The notes beneath the pieces were generated by a model. The model did no database searches and was not told the DNA's origin. It saw nothing but the letters and a program-made list of their open reading frames with translations. Both the position numbers and the translations under genes were made by a program. DNA of 60,063 nt, taken from the NCBI GenBank assembly GCA_016195685.1, contig JACPZE010000026.1:1-60063 (forward strand), written 5' to 3'. Numbering within the stretch: position 1 is the first letter of the stretch; the number at the start of each line of letters is the position of its first letter. The DNA comes from Candidatus Gottesmanbacteria bacterium. Its GTDB lineage: Bacteria > Patescibacteriota > Microgenomatia > 2-02-FULL-39-11. This document shows positions 13,010-43,682 of the stretch, one piece after another.

Positions 13010-14134
13010 ATGAAAGTTGCTATTGTCCACGACTACATTAAAGAATATGGAGGGGCGGAGAGGGTATTGGAAGTTCTACACGAAATATGGCCAGAGGCAC
13101 CTGTCTATACCACTGTTTATCTTCCGCAATTCTTAGGTCCTCATATGGAAAGATTTAAAGGCTGGGATATAAGGACTTCCTGGATGCAAAATATCCCATA
13201 TGTCGGGAAACTGATTAGTCCGATTAGACTTGTTACTCCTTGGTATTTTGACAATATAGATTTCCGTCAGTTTGATGTAGTGATAGTTTCTGCCACAGGT
13301 GCTTATTTCCCAAATTTGATTGTAAGAGACCCTGATACTTTACATATCTGCTATTGCCATACTCCCCCTCGTTATCTTTATGGTTATCCGACTGCCAGAA
13401 ACTGGCAAAATAGTGTAATCGGTAGGATTGCAGCAGGATTTTTCAATCACTCACTTCGTCAATGGGATTTTGTTTCTTATCAAAGGCCGGATTATATTAT
13501 TGCTAATTCCTATGAAGTGAAGAGAAGAATCGAAAAGTTTTACAGAAGAGACGCAATGGTAATTTATCCGCCGGTTAATGCTGAGTCAAAAATCAAAAAT
13601 CAAAAATCAAAAGTCCCAGGCAAAAGTAAAAATTATTTCTTGGCTGGAGGTAGATTGGCGAGGGCAAAAAGGATTGATTTAGCTATTGAAGTATGTAATA
13701 GACTCAAGTTTCCACTGAAGGTTTTTGGCCGGGGTTTTGCTGACTATGATAGTGAGCTTAGGAGAATTGCCGGTCCGACGATAGAATTTTTAGGAGAAGT
13801 AAGTGAGCAAGAACTTTCTAAGTTATACGCTGGTGCAACAGCACTTATTTACCCGTCTGAACAAGAGGATTTTGGTATCATGCCGGTTGAGGCGATGACT
13901 TTTGGTACTCCTGTGATCGCGTTAAACCAAGGAGGAGTGAAGGAAACAGTGATAGATGGTAAAACCGGTGTGTTTTTTGATGAACCAACGGTTAAAAGCC
14001 TAATGGAAGCTATGAAACGATTCAACAAACAAATAATCATGAGTGAAAACTGTATAGAACAAGCGAAAAAATTCAGTAAAGAGAGATTCAAGAAAGAAAT
14101 TACTAATTTTGTTAATTCGAAAATTAAATTATAA
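13010..14134 (+). CDS. GT4 glycosyltransferase
   Basis: KVAIVHDY..GGAERVL, EDFGIMPVEAM. Confidence 0.9.
   Translation: MKVAIVHDYIKEYGGAERVLEVLHEIWPEAPVYTTVYLPQFLGPHMERFKGWDIRTSWMQNIPYVGKLISPIRLVTPWYFDNIDFRQFDVVIVSATGAYFPNLIVRDPDTLHICYCHTPPRYLYGYPTARNWQNSVIGRIAAGFFNHSLRQWDFVSYQRPDYIIANSYEVKRRIEKFYRRDAMVIYPPVNAESKIKNQKSKVPGKSKNYFLAGGRLARAKRIDLAIEVCNRLKFPLKVFGRGFADYDSELRRIAGPTIEFLGEVSEQELSKLYAGATALIYPSEQEDFGIMPVEAMTFGTPVIALNQGGVKETVIDGKTGVFFDEPTVKSLMEAMKRFNKQIIMSENCIEQAKKFSKERFKKEITNFVNSKIKL
13586..13613 (+). repeat. heptamer tandem array (tcaaaaa x3 + tcaaaag) inside the GT4 CDS
   Basis: Read directly; encodes SKIKNQKSK. Confidence 0.85.
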
Positions 14135-14164
14135 TTTACTGATCCCCGAAGTTAAAATTAATGT

Positions 14165-15001
14165 ATGCCTGAACTTCCAGAAGTTGAAACACTAAAAAAT
14201 CAGTTTTCCCATCTTTTGATCGGACAAAAGATAAAATCTATCGATATAAAATCTTTAAAATCCTTTCAGGGTGGTAAAGATAAAGTATTGGGACAAGTGA
14301 TAGCAGATGTGAACCGTTTTGCCAAGATACTGGTTTTATCTCTCTCTAATAATAGATATTTAGCTATACATCTCAAACTCACAGGGCAACTAATTTATAG
14401 AGGAAAAAAACAACCGAAAAAATTAAAAATATTTGAAACTGATCTTTTACAACTGCCAAACATCTATACAAGAGTTATTATAAATTTCCAAAGCGGGGAT
14501 AAATTATATTTCAATGATCAAAGAAAATTTGGCTGGGTTAAGGTAGTCGATGATCTTGCCAGTCTAGTCAAGAAATTGGGACCTGACCCGTTGGCAAAAC
14601 TGGATAAAAAAAAGTTTTATGAAATTATTCACGCGAGTCGTAAACCGATAAAAGTTCTTCTTATGGACCAGGAGAAAATAGGGGGAGTAGGGAATATCTA
14701 TGCGAATGACTCCCTTTTTTTGTCTAAAATAAATCCCAAGGTGAAAGCGGACCAACTATCAATTAATCAGGCTGCGAAATTATTTGGAAATTTAGTGCGG
14801 GTTTTAACAGAGGGTATAAAATGGAGAGGTTCTTCGCAGGATAATTTCCGTGATGCATATGGTGTAAAAGGTGAGAAACAGGACCATTTTTATGTATATG
14901 GTAAAAGTAAAGAGAAATGTATCAATGGTTGTGGAGGAATCATAACTAGAATAGAACTTGGTGGCAGGGGTACCTTTTACTGCCCGATATGCCAAAGGTA
15001 A
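14165..15001 (+). CDS. mutM: formamidopyrimidine-DNA glycosylase
   Basis: N-terminal PELPEVE, H2TH GVGNIYAND, C-terminal zinc finger ending CPICQ. Confidence 0.95.
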   Translation: MPELPEVETLKNQFSHLLIGQKIKSIDIKSLKSFQGGKDKVLGQVIADVNRFAKILVLSLSNNRYLAIHLKLTGQLIYRGKKQPKKLKIFETDLLQLPNIYTRVIINFQSGDKLYFNDQRKFGWVKVVDDLASLVKKLGPDPLAKLDKKKFYEIIHASRKPIKVLLMDQEKIGGVGNIYANDSLFLSKINPKVKADQLSINQAAKLFGNLVRVLTEGIKWRGSSQDNFRDAYGVKGEKQDHFYVYGKSKEKCINGCGGIITRIELGGRGTFYCPICQR

Positions 15002-15025
15002 GATTTCTGCTATAATACGCTGTAG

Positions 15026-15772
15026 ATGGATATATCCCAACCTATTGTCCAGACTTATGACAAGTCCTTCGGATTATCAAAGGATAAACCTCTTGTAATC
15101 TCCCTAGGCGGATCATTGGTTATTCCCAATAGCGGGATGGATACCAAATTTTTGGCACAATTCAATAATTTCATAAGACAAAAAATCGCCCAAGGATGGC
15201 GATTTTTTATAGTAGTTGGCGGAGGAGCGACTGCCCGCCATTATATAGAAGAAGCGCAGAAAATTGCAGGTCATATAACCGACTGGGATTTGGACTTTTT
15301 AGGTATCCATGCAACTCGTCTGAACGCGCATCTTATGAGAACTATCTTTCAGGATGTTGCACATCCTAGGATCATAGCCAATTACGAAAAAAAGATTACC
15401 CAACTGAAACAACCTTTGGTCATTGCAGCGGGATGGAAACCCGGTTTTTCTACAGACTATGATGCTGTTATATTGGCAAGAGATTACGGTGCTCAGGCTG
15501 TAATCAATATGTCCAATATCACCCAGGTTTTTGAAAAAGACCCCAAAAAATTTCCGGACGCCAGGCCTCTACACAATCTGACGTGGGAAGAATTTGAAAA
15601 GATTGTAGGAAATAAATGGAGTCCGGGGAGCAATCTCCCTTTTGATCCTGTAGCTACAAAGTTAGCTAAGGAACTGAAAATATCAGTATACGTGGTGGGC
15701 AGTGATTTGAATAATTTAGAAAATGTGATTGCAGGAAAAATTTTTCTCGGCACCGTTATTTCTCCTTCATGA
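15026..15772 (+). CDS. pyrH: UMP kinase (archaeal-type)
   Basis: VISLGGSL, VGGGATARHY, PGFSTDYDA, DPKKFPDA, PFDPVA. Confidence 0.88.
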   Translation: MDISQPIVQTYDKSFGLSKDKPLVISLGGSLVIPNSGMDTKFLAQFNNFIRQKIAQGWRFFIVVGGGATARHYIEEAQKIAGHITDWDLDFLGIHATRLNAHLMRTIFQDVAHPRIIANYEKKITQLKQPLVIAAGWKPGFSTDYDAVILARDYGAQAVINMSNITQVFEKDPKKFPDARPLHNLTWEEFEKIVGNKWSPGSNLPFDPVATKLAKELKISVYVVGSDLNNLENVIAGKIFLGTVISPS

Positions 15773-16875
15773 TTTTATCCAGTCTTTCTTTACAAAATTT
15801 TCGCAAGTTTCCCAAAAAAATTTTTCATTTTTCATCAAATCAAACGATCATTATAGGGCCAAATGGAATAGGAAAGACCAATATTCTTGAGGCGATTTTT
15901 CTACTGGCGACAGGCAGAAGTTTCCGGGCGGAAAATGACAGGGAGATGATCGAATTCGGTAAAGAAACAGGAAGAGTATCGGCCGGAGTAAATATATCGA
16001 CTGATGAGAATACCGATCTGGAAGTTTTATTGACGTCCGGAATGGTAATAGGAATAAAGACCCAACTAAAACAATATAAATTAAACGGAGTGCCCAAGCG
16101 GATGTCGGATTTTGTGGGAATCTTAAAAGTCGTACTTTTCTGGCCGCAGGATCTGGAACTCGTGACTGATTCTCCATCTGTAAGGCGCCATTATCTGGAT
16201 TTTGTTTTAATGCAGGTAGATAGAGAATACAGAAGAAATTTACATTCATATGAAAAAGGATTGCGACAGAGAAATAAAGTACTAGAAGCTATACGGGATA
16301 CCGGTGCGCATCATCATCAGTTACTCTTTTGGAATCAATTGCTTATAAAAAGCGGGGAGCATATTATAAAGAAAAGAGAGGAATATATAGATTATATTAA
16401 TAACCATCAACGATCCCCGGCCTCGCCCGGCACGGGGCGAGTAACCATCAACGATCAACAGCTGCGTTACCAATTATTTTATGATAAAAGTATTATTTCC
16501 CAAGACAGATTAGATCAATACAGTCGAGAAGAAGTGGCGTCGGCAAATACTCTGGTTGGACCACATAGGGACGATTTTAGTTTTTCTCTGAGTTCAACCC
16601 CTGGGATTGAGGCTAGAAATCTTTCACACTACGGAAGCAGGGGAGAGCAAAGACTAGGTATACTTTGGCTGAAATTGAGAGAATTGGCATATATTAAAGA
16701 AACAACAAGAGAGAAACCAATATTACTTTTGGATGATATATTTTCTGAACTGGATCATGAACGCAGGAAAATAATTTTTGATATTATTGGTAATCAACAA
16801 ACTATCATGACTACAACTGACTTACATCTTTTGGAAAAAGCCAAAATTGAAAATGCAAAGATGATAGAATTGTAA
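15769..16875 (+). CDS. recF: DNA replication/repair protein RecF
   Basis: LQNFR, Walker A GPNGIGKTN, GPHRDD, GSRGEQR, LLLDDIFSELD. Confidence 0.95.
   Translation: MILSSLSLQNFRKFPKKIFHFSSNQTIIIGPNGIGKTNILEAIFLLATGRSFRAENDREMIEFGKETGRVSAGVNISTDENTDLEVLLTSGMVIGIKTQLKQYKLNGVPKRMSDFVGILKVVLFWPQDLELVTDSPSVRRHYLDFVLMQVDREYRRNLHSYEKGLRQRNKVLEAIRDTGAHHHQLLFWNQLLIKSGEHIIKKREEYIDYINNHQRSPASPGTGRVTINDQQLRYQLFYDKSIISQDRLDQYSREEVASANTLVGPHRDDFSFSLSSTPGIEARNLSHYGSRGEQRLGILWLKLRELAYIKETTREKPILLLDDIFSELDHERRKIIFDIIGNQQTIMTTTDLHLLEKAKIENAKMIEL
16401..16463 (+). repeat. heptamer array interrupted by a GC hairpin, inside recF
   Basis: taaccatcaacgatc at 16401-16415 and 16442-16456 flanks ctcgccc-ggcacg-gggcgag. 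Confidence 0.8.
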
Positions 16876-16878
16876 GTG

Positions 16879-17044
16879 CGGGTCCTGATAATTATAAGCT
16901 CGCATATAAATTTTTCTAGCTTACAATATTACAGTATTCCGTTAGTGCGTTGCCATTCTTATTTTATCTAAGAATCTTATTAGTTGATCCTGATTTATTT
17001 ACTTGATTTAAGCGTCCCGTGTGTGCGCTTCAAAAAATTCATAT
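16879..17044. repeat. degenerate family A/B composite element
   Basis: cgggtcctg at 16879, atataaatttttc at 16904-16916, gcgtcccgt at 17012, cttcaaaaaattcatat at 17028-17044. Confidence 0.6.
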
Positions 17045-17077
17045 TGCTGCGCTTCTTAACTTGGTTATGTAATAATA

Positions 17078-17935
17078 ATGTATATGGACAACTTTCTTAA
17101 AAATATTTATCTTCCCTCCAAAGATTCCCACAAAGGACAAAATGGGAGATTACTTATCATTGGTGGGTCGCATCTTTTCCATAGTGCTTCTTTGTGGTCA
17201 CTTAAAGTAGCCAGTCGTATTGTAGATTTGGTACATTACTCTTCAATTCCCGAGAACAATAAAATTGTTCAAAAGTTAAAGGAAGAGTTCCGGGATGGGA
17301 TTGTTGTCCCACGTTCGGAGATCGATAATTACATCCAAGAGGACGATTGTATATTAATTGGCCCGGGGATGGTCCGGACAGAAAATCCGAAATCCGAAAT
17401 CCGAAATCCGAATTTAAATGAAATATTAGAAATAGAAGATGAAGGATTACAGACTTATTATCTGACAAAATATTTACTGCAAAAATATCCACAAAAGAGA
17501 TGGGTGATAGACGCAGGAGCCCTGCAAATGATGGAACCGGCTTGGATTCCGGCAAATGCTATTCTTACTCCCCATCATTTGGAATTTAAACGATTATTTG
17601 GTAGAGATTACACACCGCAATTAGTAGGTGAAGAAGCGAAAAAACATAATTGCATAATATTAGTTAAAGGAAAACAGGATATTGTTTGTTCGCCTAAAGA
17701 ATGTAAAACAATTAAAGGAGGAAATGCCGGTATGACAAAGGGAGGCACAGGAGATGTTCTTGCAGGTTTGGTTTCCGCACTTTATTGTAAGAACGATCCA
17801 TTTCTGTCCGCCACAGCGGCTTCTTATATCAACAAAAAAGCAGGAGAAGATTTATTCAAAAAGATGGGTTATTTTTTCAATGCCTCAGATTTGGCTGACC
17901 AGATTCCCCAGACGATGAATAAATTGCTTTTATGA
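17078..17935 (+). CDS. nnrD: NAD(P)H-hydrate dehydratase (YjeF C-terminal)
   Basis: HKGQNGRLLIIGGS, IGPG, VIDAGAL, LTPHHLEF, GGTGDVLAG. Confidence 0.9.
   Translation: MYMDNFLKNIYLPSKDSHKGQNGRLLIIGGSHLFHSASLWSLKVASRIVDLVHYSSIPENNKIVQKLKEEFRDGIVVPRSEIDNYIQEDDCILIGPGMVRTENPKSEIRNPNLNEILEIEDEGLQTYYLTKYLLQKYPQKRWVIDAGALQMMEPAWIPANAILTPHHLEFKRLFGRDYTPQLVGEEAKKHNCIILVKGKQDIVCSPKECKTIKGGNAGMTKGGTGDVLAGLVSALYCKNDPFLSATAASYINKKAGEDLFKKMGYFFNASDLADQIPQTMNKLLL
17383..17410 (+). repeat. heptamer tandem array (aaatccg x4) inside nnrD
   Basis: Four perfect copies; encodes NPKSEIRNP. Confidence 0.9.
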
Positions 17936-18462
17936 TAGAAAAACGAGCAATAATTCTCCATGCCTGGTATGAAAATCCTAATAGCCAATGGTATCAGTGG
18001 CTAAAAAAAGAGTTGGAAAAGAAAGATTATTCAATATTGATTCCGGATCTTCCAACTATGAATTCTGATTTACCGGATATGGAGAAAATGATTGAAAAAG
18101 TTAAAAGCTTGGTTGATGAAAATACCATAATTGCTGGTCACAGTTTAGGTGCTGTTTTAGCCTTAAGAATCGCGGAGAGAATAAAATATAAGAAAGCAAT
18201 TCTTGTGGCCGGATGGGATTTTAATGACCTTTGTGAAGAGCACCGATTATTTTGGAAAAATATGATAGATCATAAAAAGATTAAAAGTAACGTAAGAGAA
18301 ATTTATTGCTTATCATCTGGTAATGATATTTTTTTTACCGCCAATCAAACGGAGAATATGAGTAAGAGGTTGGGGGCAAAATTTATTCTTATTAAAGGTG
18401 CTGGACATTTTACAAGGAAAGATGGGATTACGGAAGTTCCTAAGATTCTTCAGTTTATCTAA
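17932..18462 (+). CDS. RBBP9/YdeN-family alpha/beta hydrolase
   Basis: GHSLG nucleophile elbow, S..D, GAGHF. Confidence 0.85.
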   Translation: MIEKRAIILHAWYENPNSQWYQWLKKELEKKDYSILIPDLPTMNSDLPDMEKMIEKVKSLVDENTIIAGHSLGAVLALRIAERIKYKKAILVAGWDFNDLCEEHRLFWKNMIDHKKIKSNVREIYCLSSGNDIFFTANQTENMSKRLGAKFILIKGAGHFTRKDGITEVPKILQFI

Positions 18463-19304
18463 AAGAAATTTAAAAGAATTATGCCGAGCACACAGAGAAG
18501 GGAACCAGCTAGTTTTTTGCTGATGTTTTTTCTTTCTCCAAGAAATAGTATTCCTATCAACACACTAGATAGTAAAAAAACAGTCGTAAAATTTACATTC
18601 GCTACAGCTATTTTGCTTCTTTGATAGGTCCAAAGAAGAAGATAAAATGCCGATACCGCAGTAAACCTAGAGAGTATTATTTTTTTCTTATATTTTCCAA
18701 AAATTGTTTTAATATCCTTATAAGTTTTGGGAATAAAAAGCAGTATAGAAACGATAAAAAAATCAAAAATAAAAACAAAGGATAAAGGATCAACGAGCGA
18801 TAGCGCAAGTTTTTGAAAAACAGCTGAAATGCCAAAAGATAAACCAACAACCAATGCTAAGAAGAGTCCAAAAGAGAGTCTGAGCTTTTTGCCTTCATAG
18901 AAAATGATTAATATGCCACAAATTATTGCCAAAAAACCGACAATATTGATCATATTTATTTTTTCGTGTAAAAATACTATTCCCGATGTGAAGGTGACAA
19001 GAAGACTTGATTGTAAAAGTATTGTGATGTTGGATATATCTTCAGTTTTGTAAGCTTTGATCAGAGATAAATTTCCAAGGAATGTGGCTAGAACAGCAAG
19101 AAAAATATATAAATAGACAATAGATAATTTAGGAAATGATCCAAATAATAGAAAAGGAATTAGAAAAAGTAGTCCGTTGAGTGAAAGCTGAAGAAAAAAA
19201 TAGGAGAAAGAAGAATATTTTTTTTCAGTTATACTTTTATTTATGCTTTCTGTAACTCCTGAGGAAATACCAGCAAGTATTGAGACAAAATAGACAAAAA
19301 TCAT
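18459..19304 (-). CDS. EamA/DMT-family transporter
   Basis: About 10 TM helices in two repeats. Reads on the minus strand (CAT at 19302-19304; stop at 18459-18461). Confidence 0.82.
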   Translation of the reverse strand: MIFVYFVSILAGISSGVTESINKSITEKKYSSFSYFFLQLSLNGLLFLIPFLLFGSFPKLSIVYLYIFLAVLATFLGNLSLIKAYKTEDISNITILLQSSLLVTFTSGIVFLHEKINMINIVGFLAIICGILIIFYEGKKLRLSFGLFLALVVGLSFGISAVFQKLALSLVDPLSFVFIFDFFIVSILLFIPKTYKDIKTIFGKYKKKIILSRFTAVSAFYLLLWTYQRSKIAVANVNFTTVFLLSSVLIGILFLGERKNISKKLAGSLLCVLGIILLNFF

Positions 19305-19564
19305 TCATCCAGCCTTTCAACGATCTTGGTTAATTGGTAGGTGATAATTACTGCAAGGATAGTAATAAGGATTGCGTAGATAAGAAGTGAGATAACACCG
19401 CTACCAACTGAAAGATATTTTTTCACATATTCGTTCACGAATTCCTGTATTACATTATTCCAAGCCAAAGCGGCAACCAGTCCAAAACCTGATGTGGTCA
19501 AAGTAATCATTTGCTTCACAATTGCCGTATGAAGTTTTCTTTCGCTTGGATTTTTGTCCGCCAT
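19301..19564 (-). CDS. DUF5654-family small membrane protein
   Basis: TSGFGLVAALAWNNVIQ motif; two TM helices. Confidence 0.8.
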   Translation of the reverse strand: MADKNPSERKLHTAIVKQMITLTTSGFGLVAALAWNNVIQEFVNEYVKKYLSVGSGVISLLIYAILITILAVIITYQLTKIVERLDE

Positions 19565-19583
19565 AATGAGATAATTATACCAA

Positions 19584-20633
19584 ATGTACTCTCCAAAATT
19601 TTCAATTACGAATAAAATCCTAAAAAATATTGGCCTGATTGAGGCCTCCCGGGAAGTGATTATGAATGCCCCGCTTGTGCCTGCTTATGAAAAGAAGTTT
19701 CGGGAGGAAGCAATTGTAAGGACAGTCCATCATGGTACTCATATCGAAGGAAATGAATTAAATATTACGGAAGCCTCAGCTGTACTAAAAGGTGAACAAA
19801 TCGTCGGCCGTGATCGGGATATACAAGAGGTCATAAATTATAGAAATGTCATAAATTTTTTGGATTTTGTGGCGACAGGGGAGGTGTCACAGGGGAAAAT
19901 TACTGAAGCAGTGGTGAAGAAGATTCACGCTCTGACGGTCGATAAATTATTACCTGATGAACAATGCGGTGAGTATCGCAAGACGCAGGTTGTAGTAAAA
20001 AATTCAATCACAGGTGAAATTACTTTTCGTCCTCCGCCGGCTATTGAAGTACCTTATCAGGTGTCGGACTTTTTAGAGTGGATAAATAGCCTCAAAAAGG
20101 ATGAGATGCATCCAGTCCTTGCAGCCGGTATCACTCATTATGAACTTGTCAAAATCCATCCTTTTGTCGATGGAAACGGTAGGATGGCTCGTGCCACGGC
20201 TACTTTGGTTCTATTTTTGGAGAATTATGATATAAAAAAGTTTTTTTCTCTTGAGGAGTATTACGATAAAGATGCTTCTCGTTACTACGAAGCGCTCAAA
20301 TCAGCTTCCGGTGGTGATTTGAGTCACTGGACGGAATATTTTACCGAAGGCTTAGCAATTGAAATTACACGTGTAAAAGAAAAGGTATTGCGTCTTTCTA
20401 CAGATGTACATCTGAAAGAAAAGCTGGGTGGAAAGCAGGTATTTTTAACCGAGAGGCAGATTGCGATAATGGAATATATCCAAAGAGTGGGATATCTGAA
20501 TAATGAAGGTTTTACAGATCTTTTCCCTAAAATATCAGAGGATACAGTGCTTCGTGATCTTCATGATCTTTTGCAAAAAGGAATTATCAAAAAAGAGGGA
20601 AGGACAAAGGCAGCTAGGTATAGGTTAAGGTAA
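19584..20633 (+). CDS. Fic-domain protein with C-terminal winged HTH
   Basis: Fic motif HPFVDGNGRMAR; N-terminal GTHIEGN resembles the inhibitory helix motif; C-terminal SEDTVLRDLHDL. Confidence 0.92.
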   Translation: MYSPKFSITNKILKNIGLIEASREVIMNAPLVPAYEKKFREEAIVRTVHHGTHIEGNELNITEASAVLKGEQIVGRDRDIQEVINYRNVINFLDFVATGEVSQGKITEAVVKKIHALTVDKLLPDEQCGEYRKTQVVVKNSITGEITFRPPPAIEVPYQVSDFLEWINSLKKDEMHPVLAAGITHYELVKIHPFVDGNGRMARATATLVLFLENYDIKKFFSLEEYYDKDASRYYEALKSASGGDLSHWTEYFTEGLAIEITRVKEKVLRLSTDVHLKEKLGGKQVFLTERQIAIMEYIQRVGYLNNEGFTDLFPKISEDTVLRDLHDLLQKGIIKKEGRTKAARYRLR

Positions 20634-20634
20634 T

Positions 20635-22407
20635 ATGATTTTTAAACGACTTTCTGAATATTTAGGGAAACTTGAAGAAACCACTCTTCGCAACAAAATC
20701 ACACAGATTCTAGCGGAACTTTTCCATGAATCCACCCCGGATGAGATAGGAAAACTTTGCTATCTGTTGCAAGGGAGGGTAGCGCCACTTTTTACCGCAA
20801 TAGAATTCGGCATGGCTGACAAAATGATGATAAAAGCGATAACGTATGGAATGGGAGTTGAAGATGGAAGGGTATTAAAAGTATTTCAGGAGGAAGGAGA
20901 TTTGGGGAAAGCGGTGGAAAAAATCAAAAACCAAAAATCAACAACCAAAAATACATATAAAAAATTAAATATTAATAAAGTCTATGAAATTTTATATCAA
21001 GTTGCTACATCAGGTGGATCTGGTTCCCAGGATAAAAAAATTACTCTTCTTGGTAATTTATTACACGATGTAGATGCTCTCTCTGCACGATACATAGTTC
21101 GGATTACTCTAGCCAAACTGCGTATGGGATTTTCTGACATGACAATACTGGATAGTCTTTCCTGGATGATTAAAGGCTCCAAACAATTAAGACCGGAGAT
21201 AGAGAGAGCTTATAACGTCCGCCCTGATTTGGGTTTTATAAGTGAAACCGTGCAGAAACATGGTATCGAAGGGCTAAAATCTACAGAACCTAAAGTAGGT
21301 ATCCCCATACTTATGGCAAGAGCTGAGAGGATGGCAAACAGCGAAGATATAATATTAAAAATTGGCAAATGTGCTATCGAACCCAAATACGACGGGTTTC
21401 GTCTGCAAATCCATTACGACGGAAAAGATGTCAAATTATTTTCCCGAAATTTGGAAAATGTTACAAATATGTATCCGGATATAATTAAAGGCATAAAAAA
21501 ACAAATTCACAAGCCGGCAGTTATTGAGGGAGAGGCGATAGGAATAAATTTAAAAACAGGTGAATATCTGCCTTTTCAAGAAACAGTTCAGAGAAAGAGG
21601 AAATATGACGTTGAACTAAAAGCCAAAGAAATCCCTCTTCATCTTTTTGCTTTTGATTGTTTGATTGTAGGTAGAGAAAATTTGTTGGTTAAATCTTACG
21701 TTGAAAGAAGAAATTATTTGGAAAAGTTGATAGGTAAAGGAGAGACAGTGTATATAGCCCAGTTGGAAGTTGTTTCTAACCCAATTAGACTTGAGGAATT
21801 ATTTCAGGATGCGGTTACAAGAGGGATTGAAGGTGTGATGGCAAAAAAGCTCGAAGGAATTTATCGTGCTGGAGCAAGGGATTTTAACTGGATAAAATAC
21901 AAAAGAAGTTATTCCGGTAAACTTGCCGATACTATAGATGCAGTAGTGATGGGTTATGACTTGGGGCAGGGGAAAAGGTCCGGATTTGGGATAGGAGATT
22001 TTCTGATTGGAGTATATGATGAAAAACAGGATAAATTTGGTACTGTCACAAAAATTGGTACGGGTCTCACAGATGAGGAGTGGAGGGAAATAAAAATAAG
22101 AAGTGACAAATTAAAAGTCAAAACCCAGCCCAAAAATTATGAAGTGGATAAAATCATGAGTTGTGACATCTGGATTACACCTCAGATTGTGGTAGAGATA
22201 AGAGCTGATGAGATTACCCGTTCGCCTGTACATACAGCAGGAAGAGTTATGGGCCCGTCTGAATCTGGAAATTCCAAAGAGGTAAAAGTCGCAGGTTTTG
22301 CTCTGAGATTTCCCCGTCTTGAAAAGTTTCGAGACGACAAAAAGCCACAAGATGCAACAACCCTATCTGAAGTTGAAAAGATGTATAAACTGCAAGAGAA
22401 GAAATGA
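20635..22407 (+). CDS. ATP-dependent DNA ligase (archaeal-type)
   Basis: N-terminal DNA-binding domain, KYDGFR, EGE, FAFD, EGVMAK, WIKYK, LRFPR. Confidence 0.93.
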   Translation: MIFKRLSEYLGKLEETTLRNKITQILAELFHESTPDEIGKLCYLLQGRVAPLFTAIEFGMADKMMIKAITYGMGVEDGRVLKVFQEEGDLGKAVEKIKNQKSTTKNTYKKLNINKVYEILYQVATSGGSGSQDKKITLLGNLLHDVDALSARYIVRITLAKLRMGFSDMTILDSLSWMIKGSKQLRPEIERAYNVRPDLGFISETVQKHGIEGLKSTEPKVGIPILMARAERMANSEDIILKIGKCAIEPKYDGFRLQIHYDGKDVKLFSRNLENVTNMYPDIIKGIKKQIHKPAVIEGEAIGINLKTGEYLPFQETVQRKRKYDVELKAKEIPLHLFAFDCLIVGRENLLVKSYVERRNYLEKLIGKGETVYIAQLEVVSNPIRLEELFQDAVTRGIEGVMAKKLEGIYRAGARDFNWIKYKRSYSGKLADTIDAVVMGYDLGQGKRSGFGIGDFLIGVYDEKQDKFGTVTKIGTGLTDEEWREIKIRSDKLKVKTQPKNYEVDKIMSCDIWITPQIVVEIRADEITRSPVHTAGRVMGPSESGNSKEVKVAGFALRFPRLEKFRDDKKPQDATTLSEVEKMYKLQEKK

Positions 22408-23108
22408 AAATTTCAGTTGTCATTCCAGCTTATAACGAAGAGAAATATATTGCGAAAACCCTTGAATCGGTTAAAAATGCTGATAGGGATGATAATCCAG
22501 TGGAAATACTAGTTATAGATGGAGGGTCGGGAGATAAAACTGCAGAAATAGCCAAAAAATTTGGCGCCAAGGTAGTAGTAATTCCTCACCGTGGGATAGG
22601 TTTTGCTCGTCAGAAAGGTATAGAAAATGCATCAGGAGAAATAATCATCTATACCGATGCAGACTCAATAGTCCCATATGATTGGATGAAAGTACACGTT
22701 GATGCTTTATTAAAATCTGATGTCGTATTATCCTACGGGCCATTCAAAGTAAAAGACGGTAGTTTTGCCTATAAATTGTTCATCAATTATTTACAATATT
22801 ACGGATGGTTTATAACACATTATATTTTCAATACGATACTCTCTGTAGGTCAAAATACAGCTTTTTGGAGGGAAAAGGCACTGTTCGTAGGAGGATATGA
22901 CACTAAATTAGGAATAATGGAAGATATAGACTTTTCCCAAAGGTTGTCTAAGCAAGGTAAGGCGATATATCATCCAAACCTTATAGTTTACGCTTCAGGC
23001 AGAAGATCCAAAGAGGGATGGAGATTTTTTACCCGTACCGCATTGATCTCAATAAAATATTTTTTATTTGGCGATAAAAATTTGGGGGGTTTTCCCGATT
23101 TCCGCTGA
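22404..23108 (+). CDS. GT2 glycosyltransferase
   Basis: ISVVIPAYNEE, DGGSGD, TDAD, EDIDF. Confidence 0.9.
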   Translation: MKISVVIPAYNEEKYIAKTLESVKNADRDDNPVEILVIDGGSGDKTAEIAKKFGAKVVVIPHRGIGFARQKGIENASGEIIIYTDADSIVPYDWMKVHVDALLKSDVVLSYGPFKVKDGSFAYKLFINYLQYYGWFITHYIFNTILSVGQNTAFWREKALFVGGYDTKLGIMEDIDFSQRLSKQGKAIYHPNLIVYASGRRSKEGWRFFTRTALISIKYFLFGDKNLGGFPDFR

Positions 23109-23153
23109 ATTTTCTATATTCTCTTCCCTGTGATATGATTTAAACCAAATTTA

Positions 23154-24416
23154 ATGGCAAAAGTACTATTTTTCCCAGCTGGTGTAGGTCTTGCGCATGT
23201 TGGTAGAACTATTGAAGTGGCACATGCTTTACAAAAAGAAAACATTGATATCATATTTGGAGCAGGATGTGATGCTCCGGCTATTTTAGAAAAAGAAAAA
23301 TTACCGTATGAGATTATTCCGGAATTTGATCGTTCTACTTATGATAACAAAATTAAGCAGAATAATTGGTCAATCTATACCATCCGACTAATCAATAAAT
23401 TTGTTAAAAAAGAAGTGGAATTAGTTCGAAGTTATAAACCGGACTTGATTGTCAATGATGTAAGACTGACAGCAAAAATTACCTCAATTCTTACAGGTAT
23501 TCCTCTGGTATCCATAACCAATGTAGATGCATCAAAGTACTATGATTACTCCAAAATCAGAATGCCTTACAAAACTTATTTAGGTAAATTTTTACCGCCA
23601 AGAGTCCTATCATTTTTTGAGAAAGAAAAAGGTCAAAAAGTTTTAAGGAAAGTAAGTTTCAAGTTTTTGCAAACATTATTTTTACGTGAGCTTTTTAAAT
23701 TCAATATAATTCTTGGCAGGTATGGGAGAAGGCCATTTATTGATCCATTTGATCTTTTGACGGGGGATCTGACAATTCTCACTGATATACCACAATTTAG
23801 GCCTATTAGAAAGCTTCCTGAAAGCTTTAAACTAGTGGGCCCAATTTTTTGGAAAGGCGTCAAAAAATTACCCAAGTGGAGTACCGAAATCGATTCTAAA
23901 AAGAAAATTATCTACGTGACGGCTTCCGGTACGGGAGATAAAGATTTATTTATAAATATTTTAAAATATCTCAAAGATACTTCTTATACGGTTATCGCAA
24001 CATGTGGTAATACTTTGTCACAAAAAGAAGTAAAAATAAAAAATCCAAGACTGTTTTTGACAGATTATTTGCCGGGAGAGTGGATCATGAAACGAGCGGA
24101 TTTAGTAATATTTCCAGGCGGAAATGCTACAGCCTATCAGGCTCTTAGTTTTGGAGTACCACAAATAGGTACCCCCCTTCATCTGGATCAGGAGGACAAT
24201 ATGAATCAGTTAGTTCGGCTCGAAACTGGCATTATGTTAAATCCGAGAAAAGATTTTAATCGCAAAGTTCTTATAAATTCCGTAGAACATATTATGAGAA
24301 ATAAATCTTACAGAGATAATGCATTAAAGATAAGTAGGGAAATGAAGAAATATCATGGAGCAAAACAGGCGGCAAAAGAAATAATAAATTTTCTAAGGAT
24401 TCGTTCGTCCCGCTAA
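23154..24416 (+). CDS. GT-B glycosyltransferase (GT1/GT28-like)
   Basis: GVGLAHVGR, FPGGNATAYQALSFGVP, HLDQ. Confidence 0.8.
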   Translation: MAKVLFFPAGVGLAHVGRTIEVAHALQKENIDIIFGAGCDAPAILEKEKLPYEIIPEFDRSTYDNKIKQNNWSIYTIRLINKFVKKEVELVRSYKPDLIVNDVRLTAKITSILTGIPLVSITNVDASKYYDYSKIRMPYKTYLGKFLPPRVLSFFEKEKGQKVLRKVSFKFLQTLFLRELFKFNIILGRYGRRPFIDPFDLLTGDLTILTDIPQFRPIRKLPESFKLVGPIFWKGVKKLPKWSTEIDSKKKIIYVTASGTGDKDLFINILKYLKDTSYTVIATCGNTLSQKEVKIKNPRLFLTDYLPGEWIMKRADLVIFPGGNATAYQALSFGVPQIGTPLHLDQEDNMNQLVRLETGIMLNPRKDFNRKVLINSVEHIMRNKSYRDNALKISREMKKYHGAKQAAKEIINFLRIRSSR

Positions 24417-24478
24417 GCGGGACGACTACGGCCCTTTGTGCCACGCCGATATATTCAAACGATTATCGGATGCGGCCT
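24393..24478 (+). repeat. two-hairpin dispersed element (family E), copy 1
   Basis: Aligns along its length with the reverse complement of 51855-51939; supplies the last codons and stop of the GT-B gene. Confidence 0.8.
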
Positions 24479-24544
24479 AAGCAGTAAAAATATACATTAA
24501 TTCAGTACTGTTTATGGTAAAATAATTAAGTTTTTTCAAATTAC

Positions 24545-25354
24545 ATGAAGCCGTTTTTTTCAATAATAATTCCTACCCTTAATGAAGGAAAATATTTACC
24601 TACGATTCTTCAATCTCTAGCTAAACAGACGTTCAAGAATTTTGAACTTATCTTGGTAGACGGATACTCCAAAGACAAGACACTGGAAGTATTTAACAGT
24701 TTCAAGAATCGATTGCCTTTTTCAGTTTCTATTTTAAGTGACAAAACCAATGTGGGACTTCAGAGAAATATCGGTGCAGATAAGGCGAGGGGAAGTTATC
24801 TAATCTTCTTTGATGCAGATGTAGAGATAGGCCCTACATTTCTTGAAGAAATACATGTGCAAGCGATAAAAAAACCATTTCTGCTGGCTACGACCTGGAT
24901 GACTGCGGACAGTAAAAACCCTGTTGATCAGTTGATGGTGAAATTAGCTAACTTCGGATGGGAGATAGCAAAAAGCGTGAACCAACCATTTTTGGGTGGA
25001 TTTAACGTAATCATAAAAACTGAAACTTTTAAGATTTTAAAAGGTTTTCGTGAGGATTTAACTATCGGTGAAGATCGTGATTTAGCTAAACGCGCTCTTG
25101 CGAATAATATTGAATTGGCGATTTTAACTGAACCGAAATTAGTAGTTTCTCTTCGCCGATTTCGCTCAGAAGGAACATTAGAGGTATTACGCAAATATAC
25201 AAAAGCAGAAGTTTATGCATTTATAAATGGGCCTATCACAACTCAACTGTTTGATTACCCCATGGGTGGGCATGTACATAACAAAAAAAGAAAAAATAGT
25301 AGTTTTAAATCTTTGAAAAAAATTATAAAAAAATTCAATAAACTATTATCATAA
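24545..25354 (+). CDS. GT2 glycosyltransferase
   Basis: FSIIIPTLNE, DGYSKD, FFDAD, GEDRDL. Confidence 0.9.
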   Translation: MKPFFSIIIPTLNEGKYLPTILQSLAKQTFKNFELILVDGYSKDKTLEVFNSFKNRLPFSVSILSDKTNVGLQRNIGADKARGSYLIFFDADVEIGPTFLEEIHVQAIKKPFLLATTWMTADSKNPVDQLMVKLANFGWEIAKSVNQPFLGGFNVIIKTETFKILKGFREDLTIGEDRDLAKRALANNIELAILTEPKLVVSLRRFRSEGTLEVLRKYTKAEVYAFINGPITTQLFDYPMGGHVHNKKRKNSSFKSLKKIIKKFNKLLS

Positions 25355-25357
25355 ACT

Positions 25358-29005: not shown

Positions 29006-29643
29006 TGTTTCAAAACAGAGAAGAAGCAGGGAAATTATTAGCGGCTGAACTTTCCAAGTATAAAAATAATCAAGATGCGGTTGTGTTGGCTATTCCCAGA
29101 GGTGGAGTAGTAGTTGGTAGACAAATAGCAGATAAATTATCTCTTCCTTTAATACTTGCTGTTGTAAAGAAAATAGGAGCCCCAGGAAATCCTGAATTAG
29201 CAATTGGCGCCTTAGCTCCATCTAATACAAAATTTATAGATTGGGATTTAGTATTTCGCAGCAATGTTGGACAAGACTATTTGGATGCAGAATTGGATGC
29301 AAAAAGAAATGAGATAGAAGAAAGGGTGCAAAAGTTCAAAATCCGCAATCTTAAATCCGTCATCCGAAACAAAAAAATCATAATATTAACAGATGATGGA
29401 ATTGCCACCGGTGCAACTACTCGAGCAGCAATTAATTACATAAAAATAATAACCAAAAACCAAGAAACAATAGCCAAAATCATATTAGCCATTCCGGTAA
29501 TTGCCAAAGAAACATATGATAAAATAAAAAAAGAAGTGAACAAAATCTTTGCTTTAGAAATCCCTCAATCATTTAATGCAGTAGGGCAGTTTTACAAGGA
29601 ATTTCCACAGGTCTCTGATGAGGAGGTAATGGAACTTTTATGA
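29005..29643 (+). CDS. type I phosphoribosyltransferase-family protein
   Basis: FQNREEAG, LAIPRGGV, DDGIATGAT, AVGQFY..F.QVSDEEV. Confidence 0.88.
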   Translation: MFQNREEAGKLLAAELSKYKNNQDAVVLAIPRGGVVVGRQIADKLSLPLILAVVKKIGAPGNPELAIGALAPSNTKFIDWDLVFRSNVGQDYLDAELDAKRNEIEERVQKFKIRNLKSVIRNKKIIILTDDGIATGATTRAAINYIKIITKNQETIAKIILAIPVIAKETYDKIKKEVNKIFALEIPQSFNAVGQFYKEFPQVSDEEVMELL

Positions 29644-30885: not shown

Positions 30886-30966
30886 TTTCCCCATTTTAGC
30901 AAATACTTGCAACCTGTCAACCCCAAAATTCTATTATTGACAGCAATCGGCTATAATGCAAACGAA

Positions 30967-32289
30967 ATGATCAAAACGTTTCCAAATGCGGTCAAATTCT
31001 TGGAAAAATATATTCCCACTCCAGATAAAAAACATCCGGGAGAGTTGGGGCTGAAAAGAATGGAATATTTAATGGAATTGTTGGGTAATCCGCAGTTAAA
31101 ATATCCAACAATTCATGTAGGCGGAACATCGGGTAAAGGATCGACATCTACCTTTATTGCTTCAATGTTAGCCACCAAATATAAAGTCGGGCTGACTACT
31201 TCTCCACATTTGGTGAAGATAAATGAACGGATTAAACTGAATGGAATGGATATAACGGATACGGATTTTGTTAGATTAATTAATAAAATAAAACCACTTG
31301 TAGAAAAAATAGAGAAGAATAAATTAGGTGCGCCTAGTTATTGGGAAATCGTCACTGCAATAACATTTTTATATTTTGATCGACAAAAAGTAGATATTGC
31401 CATAATCGAAGTAGGACTAGGAGGTAAATTTGATGCGTCAAATGTGATTAAACCGGTAGTTGCAGTAATCACCAATGTGGGACTCGATCATACTGATATT
31501 CTTGGAGATACCGTTGAGAAAATTGCCAGAGAAAAAGCAGGAATTATTAAGCAGGGTATAAAAGTCGTTTCAGCCGCTAGGCAACAATCAGTAATAAAAA
31601 TTATTGAAGAAAAATGTAAGAAAGAGAAAGCAAAGTTATCTCTTCTTCACGGAGATTTTTCATATAAAGTTGAAAAGTTGACAGAGTCTGGGATTATCTT
31701 TGATTATTTCGGCAAATTGAAGCCGAAAAACTTAAAAATTTCCCTTTTAGGAGAACATCAAATCGAAAATGCCGCATTGGCGATAAGAGCAATTGAACAT
31801 TTAACATTTAACAATCAACAATTAACAATTGACAATATACGAAAAGGACTTTTGTCTGCTTATATTCCTGGGCGATTAGAGATTATTCAAAAAAAGCCGT
31901 TAGTTGTGTTAGATGGTGCGCATAATCCGGATAAAGTGAGAGCGTTGGTAGCCTCAATTAAGAAGATTTTTCCCGGAAAAAAAATTATTGCTATTATAGC
32001 CATCAAAAATGACAAAAATGCCAGAGAAATGCTCACTCAATTATTAAAGATAAGTCATAAAGTCATATTTACCAAATTCCAATTGACTGCAGATATCGGC
32101 ATTATCAACTCCTATGATCCAGAAGAGTTACTCAAGATATCTCAAACGATTGATAAAAAGAAACAGATGATGATTATTAAAAATGCCCAAAAAGCTCTTG
32201 AAAAAGTGATAAAATCTGCAAAATCAGATGATGTGATTTTAATTACAGGATCGTTATACTTAGTAGGAGAGATAAAAAGAGAGTATTAA
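30967..32289 (+). CDS. folC: folylpolyglutamate synthase / dihydrofolate synthase
   Basis: HVGGTSGKGS, TSPHL..INERI, EVGLGGKFDASN, DGAHNP, TGSLYLVG. Start moved to ATG 30967, 9 nt after TATAAT. Confidence 0.93.
   Translation: MIKTFPNAVKFLEKYIPTPDKKHPGELGLKRMEYLMELLGNPQLKYPTIHVGGTSGKGSTSTFIASMLATKYKVGLTTSPHLVKINERIKLNGMDITDTDFVRLINKIKPLVEKIEKNKLGAPSYWEIVTAITFLYFDRQKVDIAIIEVGLGGKFDASNVIKPVVAVITNVGLDHTDILGDTVEKIAREKAGIIKQGIKVVSAARQQSVIKIIEEKCKKEKAKLSLLHGDFSYKVEKLTESGIIFDYFGKLKPKNLKISLLGEHQIENAALAIRAIEHLTFNNQQLTIDNIRKGLLSAYIPGRLEIIQKKPLVVLDGAHNPDKVRALVASIKKIFPGKKIIAIIAIKNDKNAREMLTQLLKISHKVIFTKFQLTADIGIINSYDPEELLKISQTIDKKKQMMIIKNAQKALEKVIKSAKSDDVILITGSLYLVGEIKREY
31794..31835 (+). repeat. heptamer tandem array (6 degenerate t(t/c/g)aaca(a/t) units) inside folC
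   Basis: tgaacat ttaacat ttaacaa tcaacaa ttaacaa ttgacaa = 42 nt; encodes EHLTFNNQQLTIDN. Confidence 0.85.
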
Positions 32290-32305
32290 GTAATAAGTAT
32301 CAAGT

Positions 32306-32638
32306 ATGAAAAAAATAACTCAATCTTCTTCCATGCAAAAAGTAGGGGATGTCTTGGTGAAATTTAATCCTTTGGAGGATAAATACATTTCCCGTGAGTT
32401 TCAATCATATGGGTATTATCTGTCTGAGACGCTAAATGATCTAAAACATAGAGGTATCTATATGAGATTGGCCAAAACTATGCCCCGGGCTCTTTTGGAA
32501 AAAGCTTTATCCTATGTAAAGGATGCAAAAGTAACGAGAAAAGGGGCTCTTTTTATGTGGAAGTTAAAAGAACTTGGAGCATGGCCGAAAAAGGAAAAAC
32601 TTACCAAAAGAAAGCAAGTAGAAGATATACCTTTTTAA
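32306..32638 (+). CDS. hypothetical helical basic protein ending EDIPF
   Basis: 110-aa ORF in the same direction as folC; no family recognised with certainty. Confidence 0.75.
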   Translation: MKKITQSSSMQKVGDVLVKFNPLEDKYISREFQSYGYYLSETLNDLKHRGIYMRLAKTMPRALLEKALSYVKDAKVTRKGALFMWKLKELGAWPKKEKLTKRKQVEDIPF

Positions 32639-41639: not shown

Positions 41640-41683
41640 CCCTTCGTTCCTCAGGATAAACCCTTCGGTTGCTCAGTGTAAAC
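41640..41683. repeat. two tandem family C REP-like units
   Basis: cccttcgttcctcaggataaac then cccttcggttgctcagtgtaaac. Confidence 0.75.
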
Positions 41684-42366: not shown

Positions 42367-42400
42367 GTATATACTTTATGCTTTATACTGAAAGTGAGAG

Positions 42401-43122: not shown

Positions 43123-43191
43123 CTACTTTTCAAAAGGATCATTTTCTGATAATATTCAATTATGAATTCAATAAAGTAAAAGAGGGATTAT

Positions 43192-43515
43192 ATGTCAGAC
43201 GTTACAGTTACTGATTCCACATTTGATACAGAAGTCGTTAAATCCACTACACCAGTATTAGTTGATTTCTGGGCAGTTTGGTGCGGACCATGCCGTATGC
43301 AGGATCCGATTCTTGAAGAAATTATAAAAGAGTACAAGGGGAAAGTGAAAATTACGAAGTTAAATGTAGATGAGAATCCACAGTCAGCAGCAAAATATGG
43401 AGTTATGAGTATCCCCACATTGCTACTTTTCAAAAATGGAGAGATAGTCAAACAGATGATAGGGGTGCAGAGTAAAGAGACGTTGGTAGAGGAATTTAAA
43501 AAAGTTGTGAGTTAA
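43192..43515 (+). CDS. trxA: thioredoxin
   Basis: [17 protein letters not shown]. Confidence 0.96.
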
Positions 43516-43539
43516 TATTTAAGCTCGCATTATGATTTA

Positions 43540-43609
43540 CGGGTCCTGCCGCTCGGGTATCCCATACTACGATACATCTCCGTCTGGGATCCCTCCCTCG
43601 CGTCACCCG
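43540..43609. repeat. family A palindromic element (intergenic), followed by a degenerate heptamer run at 43627-43680
   Basis: 62/70 identical to the copA copy. Confidence 0.92.
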
Positions 43610-43682
43610 TTGTTAAAACTAATGTTTGAAAATTAAGCATTGTAAATTCATTAAAAATTGAAAATTTAAAATTAAAAATTGT

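Follow-up and report, generated by a model that had tools for sequence, protein, structure and literature searches.

Tandem repeats that have a seven-nucleotide period are over-represented in many bacteria, according to PMC4692102, which cites Mrazek, Guo and Shah (2007, PNAS) and tentatively ties the excess to the segment of DNA held by the polymerase, that is, to slippage. Among the tandem repeats that lie between genes across prokaryotes, heptamers rank first in abundance (Mori et al., SPADE, bioRxiv 10.1101/309039). Heptamers of defined unit are also known, namely GGGNATC of Xanthomonas and Nostoc (PMC4692102), TAACTGA of the Beggiatoaceae (PMC4679880) and the short tandemly repeated repetitive (STRR) sequences of cyanobacteria, and the coding heptanucleotide repeat of neuO in E. 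coli K1 is translated only at multiples of three (PMC13001214). Here we describe arrays of heptanucleotides within and between the genes of a 60,063-nt stretch of DNA from Candidatus Gottesmanbacteria bacterium (GCA_016195685.1, contig JACPZE010000026.1, forward strand), which as a whole we call the window, and in related Microgenomates of the Candidate Phyla Radiation (CPR). The heptamer excess in these bacteria is a real, strong and lineage-wide case of the known prokaryotic phenomenon, and not a new kind of element.

With the general prokaryotic excess, the arrays share their many different 7-nt units, their over-representation with respect to other periods, their greater frequency in intergenic DNA and the lack of a known function. 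Unlike it, they occur in CPR/Microgenomates, and more than half of them lie in genes for conserved enzymes, where they carry a footprint of selection; besides, there is a preference for a TCAAA core, and GC-rich palindromes are found inside some of the arrays. The STRR, GGGNATC and TAACTGA repeats resemble them in period, in copy number (few to tens), in the many loci per genome, in their frequent closeness to start codons and in the occasional inverted pairs, but consist of one or few units each (G-rich or TAACTGA) and are mostly intergenic, whereas here there are more than 120 A/T-rich units, many of them coding. Indeed, no one or few units were common to all loci of a genome, and there was just a loose preference for TCAAA. 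As in neuO, a 7-nt unit in a coding region is in frame at multiples of three and gives a 7-aa peptide repeat over three frames; with its 3–53 copies, however, neuO is a hypervariable switch in a surface-modification gene, differing between strains and also within them, whereas the arrays here have 3–7 copies, are stable among close strains and lie in housekeeping genes. A preliminary description of this DNA had named cyanobacterial STRR as known heptamers; that family does exist, although the phenomenon had already been described in prokaryotes generally, well beyond cyanobacteria. Our literature searches retrieved no report of heptamer repeats in CPR bacteria, or of a footprint in coding sequences.

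Heptanucleotide arrays in the window

The window is A/T-rich (35–41% G+C). Tandem arrays were called by Tandem Repeats Finder (TRF) and checked by lag-specific self-match. Gene identities were assigned by Pfam (GT4, RecF-like SMC_N, NnrD as Carb_kinase, Lig1-type ATP ligase, FemAB/GNAT, PIG-L, phosphoribosyltransferase or PRTase, and FolC), and that of EndoQ is supported by PDB 5zb8 (E 4e-50). As in other heptanucleotide simple sequence repeats (SSRs), three or more head-to-tail copies of a 7-nt unit are found in the window. The arrays, with the open reading frames (ORFs) that hold them, are:

13586-13612, plus strand: (TCAAAAA) x3.9, 100% match, in the GT4 ORF 13010-14134, aa 193-201 SKIKNQKSK; TRF, lag-7 match 1.0
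17383-17412, plus strand: (AAATCCG) x4.3, 100% match, in the NnrD (NAD(P)HX dehydratase) ORF 17078-17935, aa 102-112 NPKSEIRNPN
20919-20952, plus strand: (AAAAATC/AAAAACC) x4.7, superperiod 14 nt, in ORF 20635-22407 for the ATP-dependent DNA ligase, aa 95-106 EKIKNQKSTTKN
25558-25589, plus strand: 8-nt array (AAACAATG) x4, in the EndoQ ORF 25358-26725, aa 67-78; TRF, lag-8 match 0.96
28008-28046, plus strand: (AAAACTC/AAATCTC) x5.6, superperiod 14 nt, in ORF 27857-28606 for the PIG-L deacetylase, aa 51-64 ENSKLKSQNSNLK; lag-14 match 0.92
29451-29479, plus strand: (AACCAAA) x4.1, diverged, in the phosphoribosyltransferase ORF 29005-29643, aa 149-159 ITKNQETIAK; lag-7 match 0.71
31790-31836, plus strand: (CAATTAA/AACATTT) x6.6, in the FolC ORF 30871-32289, aa 307-322 EHLTFNNQQLTIDN; lag-7 match 0.82
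32282-32307, plus strand: (AGTATTA) x3.7, across the stop codon of FolC and the start of ORF 32306-32638; lag-7 match 0.84
42370-42389, no strand assigned: (TATACTT) x2.9, intergenic, between divergent ORFs and 11 nt ahead of the start at 42401; TRF
43650-43680, plus strand: (ATTAAAA) x4.4, intergenic, ending 2 nt ahead of the start of ORF 43683-44630; TRF

The lag-7 self-match was 0.64–1.0 at eight period-7 sites of the window, and in the ligase array it was lower than the lag-14 match (0.78 vs 0.95). The arrays that the preliminary description had placed in GT4, NnrD, ligase, PIG-L, PRTase (29449) and FolC, and between genes at 32283 and 43627, are thus borne out by TRF or self-match, as is the 8-nt version that it reported in EndoQ (25561). 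It was also right that the coding arrays of the window are all A-rich on the coding strand and give K/N/Q/S-rich peptides that cycle through the three frames, as in SKIKNQKSK; this cycling occurs because 7 and 3 are coprime, so that each 21 nt are read in all three frames. When the window was simulated 100 times with an order-3 Markov model and TRF was run at identical settings, 0.38 arrays of period 7 with at least 2.8 copies were expected; nine were observed, and every other period gave one at most.

A further A-rich near-heptamer run, AAAAATCAAAAATAAAAACAAA, occurs at 18758-18779, within the minus-strand ORF 18459-19304. If this ORF is real, the run would be T-rich on its coding strand (F/V/I-rich) and an exception to the A-rich rule.

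Enrichment of period 7 across the lineage

We sampled 80 Microgenomates loci (1.36 Mb), obtained from a ligase-alignment scan of species-representative genomes, and derived expected counts from per-locus Markov models. The numbers of arrays were:

Period 6: 24 observed, 11.6 expected
Period 7: 239 observed, 12.0 expected
Period 8: 44 observed, 15.6 expected
Period 9: 41 observed, 7.0 expected

Period 7 is therefore enriched about 20-fold over the control, as had been proposed, and periods 6, 8 and 9 are just 2–6 times over expectation. A second sample, of 120 metagenome contigs (0.7 Mb) gathered for another purpose and scored away from the selecting motif, agrees, with 127 arrays of period 7 and 14, 45 and 30 of periods 6, 8 and 9, respectively. 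The weaker excess at these neighbouring periods suggests a distribution of lengths centred on 7, and not one fixed length. Mean density in the lineage is about 175 arrays per Mb and is very uneven: related genomes have anything between 0 and about 10 arrays per 10 kb, and 24 of the 80 loci lack them.

Artefacts of chance or composition are ruled out by the Markov nulls of the window and its relatives. Likewise, an assembly artefact is ruled out: ten assemblies made independently from one population have identical arrays, and arrays are present in records of NCBI, JGI and ENA.

Arrays in genes pass a selection filter

The sample of 80 loci contained 248 arrays, with 142 within genes, 39 at gene ends and 67 intergenic. 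According to crude, ORF-based gene calls (91% coding), their density was 1.1 per 10 kb in coding and 5.5–8.7 in non-coding DNA, so that they are 5–8 times denser outside genes and, like prokaryotic heptanucleotide SSRs, preferentially intergenic. The A-rich strand was the coding strand in 124 of the 142 arrays in genes, and was evenly divided (34:34) among intergenic arrays between co-directional genes. This even division rules out a mutational strand bias as the source of A-richness, and indicates that A-richness in coding sequences results from a filter.

Because 7 and 3 are coprime, each 21 nt also use all seven codon offsets, and a coding unit must thus be free of stops when read as a circle. 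Consensus units were stop-free in 98 of 137 coding arrays vs 27 of 104 non-coding ones, and coding arrays whose consensus would give a stop (TAA) carry variant copies at that position. The orientation on the coding strand is explained in part by the TGA contained in the reverse complement of TCAAAAN. Array length in genes had its mode at 32 nt, and 71 of the 142 arrays measured 29–34 nt, which fits a seed plus three units; intergenic arrays showed a spread of 2 to 6 added units. In a narrower, post hoc comparison, the classes with three and with two added units stood at 71:28 in genes and 20:27 in intergenic DNA (Fisher p = 0.001).

Arrays lie in loops and linkers of variable length

Synteny with the window is kept in several relatives, making ortholog alignments possible. 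The best relatives of the window's Lig1-type ATP-dependent ligase, at 56–75% identity, are from metagenome-assembled genomes named Candidatus Gottesmanbacteria, Microgenomates or Patescibacteria; an exact-protein look-up and a single-protein genome scan found no closer relative of the window in the collections, the best ligase match being 75% identical.

In these alignments, every clear array of the window sits in a segment that varies in length among orthologs. The GT4 array is at the junction of two Rossmann domains (Pfam limits 13-192 and 196-354), where the protein is about 3–6 aa longer than most orthologs, and the NnrD array is within an insert of 18–40 aa common to Gottesmanbacteria-like orthologs and absent in other Microgenomates. 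The PIG-L site is 6 aa longer than PDB 8bgn and the EndoQ array falls in a 13-aa gap relative to Pfu EndoQ (PDB 5zb8), in loops of variable length in both cases. The PRTase segment with the 29451 array is 5–6 aa longer than in more distant orthologs, and the FolC loop is strongly variable among the three orthologs found, with a far longer insert in the relative designated L001. The ligase array, in turn, adds no net length; a K/N/Q/S linker of about equal size is present in each of the 35 orthologs, and several carry the peptide KIKNQK too. In the AlphaFold2 model of the ligase (mean predicted local distance difference test, pLDDT, 85), the array peptide forms the end of helix 90-101 and the coil 102-111, with pLDDT 66 in the array block vs about 91 in the flanking blocks.

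The preliminary description had called the arrays inserts in conserved enzymes and had expected them in surface loops. They do map to loops and linkers of variable length, including a helix end and low-confidence coil in the ligase. The term insert is only partly apt: there is extra length at the sites in GT4, PIG-L, EndoQ and PRTase (29451), and the NnrD array lies within a clade-specific insert, but there is none in the ligase, with its linker of equal length, nor at 29338 of PRTase, where orthologs are equal in length. Arrays recur at the same GT4, NnrD and ligase loops in different genomes.

A/T-rich genomes such as that of Plasmodium falciparum have hydrophilic N/K-rich inserts in surface loops of conserved enzymes, which are attributed to slippage. 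The Plasmodium inserts are mostly 3-nt or irregular repeats and much longer, whereas here the period is 7 and the peptide cycles through all frames.

Turnover and stability

Copy-number comparisons were made among strains of relatives of the window. In ten contigs of one Levybacteria population, with 4–10 columns of single-nucleotide polymorphisms per 7.7–10.3 kb aligned, there were zero indels, although these contigs hold at least 12 period-7 arrays. Likewise, a Gottesmanbacteria pair with 99.2% DNA identity showed one indel, outside all four arrays of the compared span. Copy-number variation, which the preliminary description had suggested looking for in reads, is therefore absent among these close strains. 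The ligase linker was unchanged between strains 99.2–99.9% identical, yet was wholly remodelled at 87% DNA identity: L004 has (AAGTATN) x5, and L081 has an A-rich stretch followed by a 21-nt palindrome and (CATATAA) x2. Indel spectra were also obtained for the pairs L213/L214 (89% identity) and L010/L015 (81% identity), from lineages with few arrays. The arrays are thus not hypermutable switches, yet they turn over much faster than the surrounding gene.

Unit sequences

The 248 arrays comprise 124 different units in 3–7 copies, and the window alone has at least eight different units. Units containing TCAAA occurred 42 times in genes vs 16.1 expected (2.6-fold) when the letters of each unit were permuted keeping it stop-free, and TCAAA or its one-base variant CCAAA is present in five of the seven coding arrays of the window (GT4, ligase, GNAT, PIG-L and PRTase 29451). 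Still, about three quarters of the arrays have units without TCAAA. Pairs of arrays within one mismatch of each other made up 15.8% of the pairs within a genome vs 12.6% between genomes (p = 0.01). The claim that the sequences are different and unrelated is accordingly sustained as to their diversity, but has to be qualified, because a TCAAA core is 2.6–4 times over-represented, the unit AAATCCG recurs and units are weakly genome-specific.

Two relatives illustrate the sharing of units. L215 has GAATTAA-type arrays in three genes (1459-1489, 2130-2162 and 8998-9029), including GT4 at aa 192 and ligase at aa 96, and in L025 seven of ten arrays are of type AAAGTTC/AAAAGTT. At the sites that match those of L215, the window units are TCAAAAA (GT4, aa 193) and AAAAATC (ligase, aa 95).

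Origin of the arrays

We favour, with a rough probability of 0.55, the reading that these are heptanucleotide microsatellites, which slippage-type duplication of local sequence would generate in a register near 7 nt and on which selection would then act. A slippage-type process in replication or repair would produce local tandem duplications with a strong preference for that register; it would be biased to A/T-rich, TCAAA-containing sequence and act genome-wide, on both strands. The filtering of the products by selection is visible in the data. Outside genes, arrays accumulate freely. In genes just some survive; these keep the frame, their commonest form being a seed with three more units (about 32 nt), are stop-free in all seven codon offsets and encode hydrophilic K/N/Q/S peptides in loops or linkers tolerant of length change. 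In the arrays at 20919 and 28008, the superperiod of 14 nt points to duplication by multiples of 7 once units had diverged. Probably, the arrays have no function of their own and are a by-product of mutation through which the surface loops of conserved enzymes are remodelled.

The data show the enrichment, its spread through the lineage, the filter of selection and the position of arrays in loops; we infer, and do not see directly, the duplication of local sequence (no ortholog has a single-copy seed), the slippage mechanism and the reason for the number 7. As to the preliminary claim of a process that duplicates 7 nt of local sequence, the specificity of period 7, the 124 units and the superperiods speak in its favour, and the missing seed and the bias to TCAAA against it.

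Several observations weigh against slippage followed by selection. Single-unit slippage in essential genes would pass through +7 and +14 frameshift states, which would favour multi-unit events or compensating indels, and, besides the lack of a seed in any ortholog, no close strain pair differs in copy number. TCAAA-containing units are in excess outside genes too (15 vs 3.5 expected, 4.3-fold), and AAATCCG, the NnrD unit, forms four coding arrays in different genomes, with 0.08 expected (P about 1e-6). Different genes of one genome tend to share a unit, and orthologous sites between genomes do not; together with the excess of TCAAA, this is not predicted by simple duplication of random local sequence. 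The pre-planned and broader test of in-frame vs out-of-frame lengths gave just p = 0.08, and about 40% of coding arrays are in length classes other than a seed plus three or six units. The idea that selection keeps only frame-preserving totals thus finds support in density, stop-freeness and the class with three added units, and falls short in the stricter frame test. Finally, densities are widely spread among relatives, and some arrays contain GC-rich palindromes at unit boundaries.

GC-rich palindromes associated with arrays

Two families of palindromes were recognized:

Family 1: TCCGCCAGCTGGCGGA, perfect, 16 nt, GC-rich, centre CAGCTG
Family 2: CCTGCCTnGCCGGCAGGCAGG, centre GCCGGC, 20-21 nt

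The window has a single copy of family 1, with one substitution, at 27229-27244 in GNAT, and the GNAT ortholog of L004 has the canonical palindrome in the same loop. Family 1 is often embedded in (TCAAAnn)n arrays. It is dispersed in A/T-rich CPR-like contigs (L003, L004, L011, L013, L029, L048, L072 and L082-L201), and one ligase loop contains it in L003, L004 and L081 as well as in the distant L048. Scanning metagenomes with TCAATCCGCCAGCTGGCGGA retrieved at least 115 distinct copies or contexts, and the following counts are among the matches listed. Sixty of 115 distinct copies were in open frames of at least 120 codons, reading as NPPAGG (23), IRQLAD (17), QSASWR (10) or from the other strand (10). 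The 10-nt direct repeat CAAAnnTCAA flanked 19 of 107 asymmetric copies, and a direct repeat of 3–4 nt flanked a further 36; the control gave 6 of 105.

Family 2 was seen at L008:58-78, L008:5147-5167, L005:4438 and L081 about 1500, and in L003, L012, L042, L050, L053, L072 and L073. It lies exactly between two identical heptamers in L008, with CGAAATC on both sides at L008:65 and AAAAGTC on both sides at L008:5155. It also occurs repeatedly with AAATCCG/GAAATCC, the unit of the window's NnrD array, and at L008:37-90 AAATCCG flanks a 21-nt palindrome. 

At one EndoQ loop, L081 reads TCAAAGA TCAAAGT TCAAAGA TCAAAGA and L004 reads TCAAAGA TCAA[TCGCCAGCTGGCGGA]TCAAAGA TCAAAGA; the palindrome of L004 is a 15-nt variant, with a net gain of 12 nt vs L081 that keeps the frame.

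Rickettsia palindromic elements (RPEs) are about 100–150 bp long and lie in frame within protein genes, and the repetitive extragenic palindromic (REP) sequences and bacterial interspersed mosaic elements (BIMEs) are short dispersed palindromes, REPs being intergenic. Like RPEs, family 1 is a dispersed palindrome tolerated within ORFs in several frames. It does not approach them in length, the palindromes here being of 16 and 21 nt; these are perfect, 16–21 bp, GC-rich in an A/T-rich genome, read in three frames and often within heptamer arrays. Unlike with REPs, no REP-associated tyrosine transposase (RAYT)-like or other enzyme is linked to them. Literature searches found no paper containing the palindrome sequences.

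Could the arrays themselves be borne by such elements? They might be footprints or flanks of small mobile GC-rich palindromes whose insertion comes with a direct repeat of 7 bp, or which have heptamers as flanks, a reading that we consider rather unlikely; it is equally doubtful that palindrome-free arrays were left by hairpin loss or by repeated insertion and excision. The palindromes exactly between identical heptamers at L008 would be expected of such elements, and the CAAAnnTCAA repeat amounts to a 19-nt element with a 7-nt repeat. Likewise, arrays that flank palindromes are always of the TCAAAnn type, a family over-represented among arrays overall, AAATCCG arrays recur with family 2, units are weakly genome-specific, and the EndoQ loop offers filled and empty states of one site. 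However, of the 90 GC-rich hairpins of the main data set only 9 were near an array (within 25 nt) and about 4% of arrays have one, so that a general link between hairpins and arrays is weak and just two palindrome families are involved; the window has at least nine arrays and a single palindrome copy. Half of the exact-match palindrome copies, among the matches listed, have no flanking repeat, and about three quarters of arrays have units without TCAAA. The raised periods 6, 8 and 9 fit a length distribution and not the fixed duplication of a transposase-type event, and the empty EndoQ site is already a four-copy array, so that targeting of arrays or TCAA by the palindrome may be all that is seen there. 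Neither a transposase nor any other enzyme for propagation was identified. From the hairpin counts, flanks, period spread and EndoQ site, we judge a 7-bp target duplication unlikely as the origin of all arrays, and the palindromes are treated here as a separate feature that prefers TCAA-rich arrays.

Other explanations for the arrays

An array might also be written in one step by templated repair, through repeated rounds of microhomology-primed synthesis where DNA is broken or a fork has stalled (alternative end joining, template switching), a possibility to which we give little credence. Such repair, and this part is no more probable, would sometimes copy another array of the same genome, and in genes just the in-frame products would survive. 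It would not need frameshifted intermediates, and would explain the perfect four-copy arrays in essential genes (13586 and 17383, 100% match) and the sharing of units between genes of one genome; it also fits the replacement of a whole linker between 87%-identical genomes. The proposal is purely inferential, however, and the copy-number spread of intergenic arrays (2 to 6 added units) is as expected of stepwise slippage, while the superperiods point to more than one event.

Heptamer arrays and GC-rich palindromes of 16–21 nt could even be two faces of one lineage-specific CPR process, which we regard as an unlikely but tangible prospect. Its form, about which we are just as tentative, would be either a small palindromic element that propagates itself and makes use of 7-nt repeats or creates them, or a repair process that writes several 7-nt copies at once, at times with other arrays as template.

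That the arrays are selected cis-elements, such as binding sites or RNA signals (for instance translation-initiation enhancers or sites of a repeat-binding protein), seems very unlikely to us. Many non-coding arrays do end within about 12 nt of a start codon, as those of the window at 43650 (2 nt) and 42370 (11 nt), in a manner that resembles the TAACTGA repeats of Beggiatoaceae, and the recurrence of arrays at the same GT4, NnrD and ligase loops would also fit. Closeness to start codons is, however, expected by chance, because intergenic spacers are short here. Moreover, there are 124 units without strand preference between co-directional genes, the unit sequence is not conserved at orthologous sites, turnover is rapid and the window has no Rfam match.

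Phase-variable contingency loci, in which the gain or loss of 7 nt in a coding array would switch the gene on or off in the manner of E. coli K1 neuO, are the least credible option, for although translated heptanucleotide coding repeats are known (neuO AAGACTC, PMC13001214) and a 7-nt array in a gene is a potential frameshift hotspot, there were no indels in the ten near-identical contigs of a relative and no change in four arrays of a pair of relatives at 99.2% identity, copies number just 3–7, no window gene is visibly split at an array, and the genes concerned are housekeeping ones (ligase, FolC, NnrD, PRTase) rather than genes for surface or host interaction, with PIG-L, GT4 and EndoQ also carrying arrays.

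Other repeats and gene context

Other repeat features of the window are:

15820, 26336 and 27243: two-copy period-7 arrays; TRF
16401-16441, plus strand: GC-rich hairpin-forming insert, RSPASPGTGRV, in RecF; stem CTCGCCC/GGGCGAG at 16422-16441; lag-7 match 0.48
27229-27244, plus strand: 16-nt palindrome TCCGTCAGCTGGCGGA overlapping (TCAAAAC) x2.1 at 27243-27257, in the FemAB/GNAT-like ORF 26895-27860 (HPSAGGSKLKTE)
29338-29372, plus strand: weak, degenerate 7-nt periodicity in PRTase; lag-7 match 0.50, P = 0.016 for a random window; no TRF call
41640-41683: direct repeat of period 22 nt, CCCTTCGGTTCCTCAGGATAAA, in two copies; it occupies the spacer immediately upstream of the CopA start (41632)

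Three of these sites had been taken for heptamer arrays and do not hold up as such. The RecF site (16401) is a GC-rich hairpin insert, an in-frame insertion of 8–14 aa that is absent in 16 orthologs; the GNAT site, placed at 27214, is the palindrome with two copies of TCAAAAC; and the PRTase site at 29338 is degenerate. An array had also been placed next to an insert in CopA; the repeat near that gene has period 22 and precedes its start.

Four GC-rich hairpins of the form TCCCGC-N3-4-GCGGGA occur in the window (945-961, 12928-12945, 24405-24425 and 44961-44975), mostly at gene ends or in spacers, and may be terminators or a REP-like family. Among the relatives, intergenic arrays are often inverted pairs, for example (GAATCAT)n followed by (CATGATT)n, which would form long hairpins built of heptamers (L055:16753-16818, L034:14147-14259, L042:340-462, L070:11887-12078 and L078:2854-2919); no inverted partners were found for the intergenic arrays of the window. 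An insert of about 90 nt resembling a miniature inverted-repeat transposable element (MITE), with 11-nt terminal inverted repeats TGTCATTGCGA...TCGCAATGACA, is present in L004 at about 3830-3920 and absent in the 87% identical L081 (about 4324); it also occurs in L003 (about 6400) and L072 (about 11250), and the 16-nt palindrome is also found within MITE-like elements.

The neighbourhood of RecF-like, NnrD, Lig1-type ATP-dependent DNA ligase and EndoQ genes (15769-26725), which are archaeal-type repair enzymes, is kept in L001, L002, L004, L005, L006, L011 and L020, and runs on to GNAT, PIG-L, PRTase and FolC across Microgenomates. In positions 1-38000 of the window the ORFs are nearly all on the plus strand, and GC skew and AT skew are steadily positive, GC skew being so throughout. 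Strand composition disparity in a complete Microgenomates genome is the subject of PMC7143001.

Significance

The heptamer excess of prokaryotes has been noted since 2007 and is still unexplained, and the lineage studied here shows it at high density. The arrays occur both in neutral DNA and in genes, so that mutation and selection can be separated in one data set, and given the range of densities among relatives it is feasible to search comparatively for the replication or repair factor responsible. Part of the variation in length and of the K/N/Q/S-rich inserts of CPR proteins is accounted for by this pattern, and these affect homology searches, alignments and structure prediction. The palindromes that are read in three frames within enzymes may be the more original lead. 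If arrays and palindromes did arise from a single process, the surface loops of essential enzymes would be continually rewritten in all three frames, and that process would show concretely how the 'prime-number' periodicity of heptamers in prokaryotic genomes could come about.

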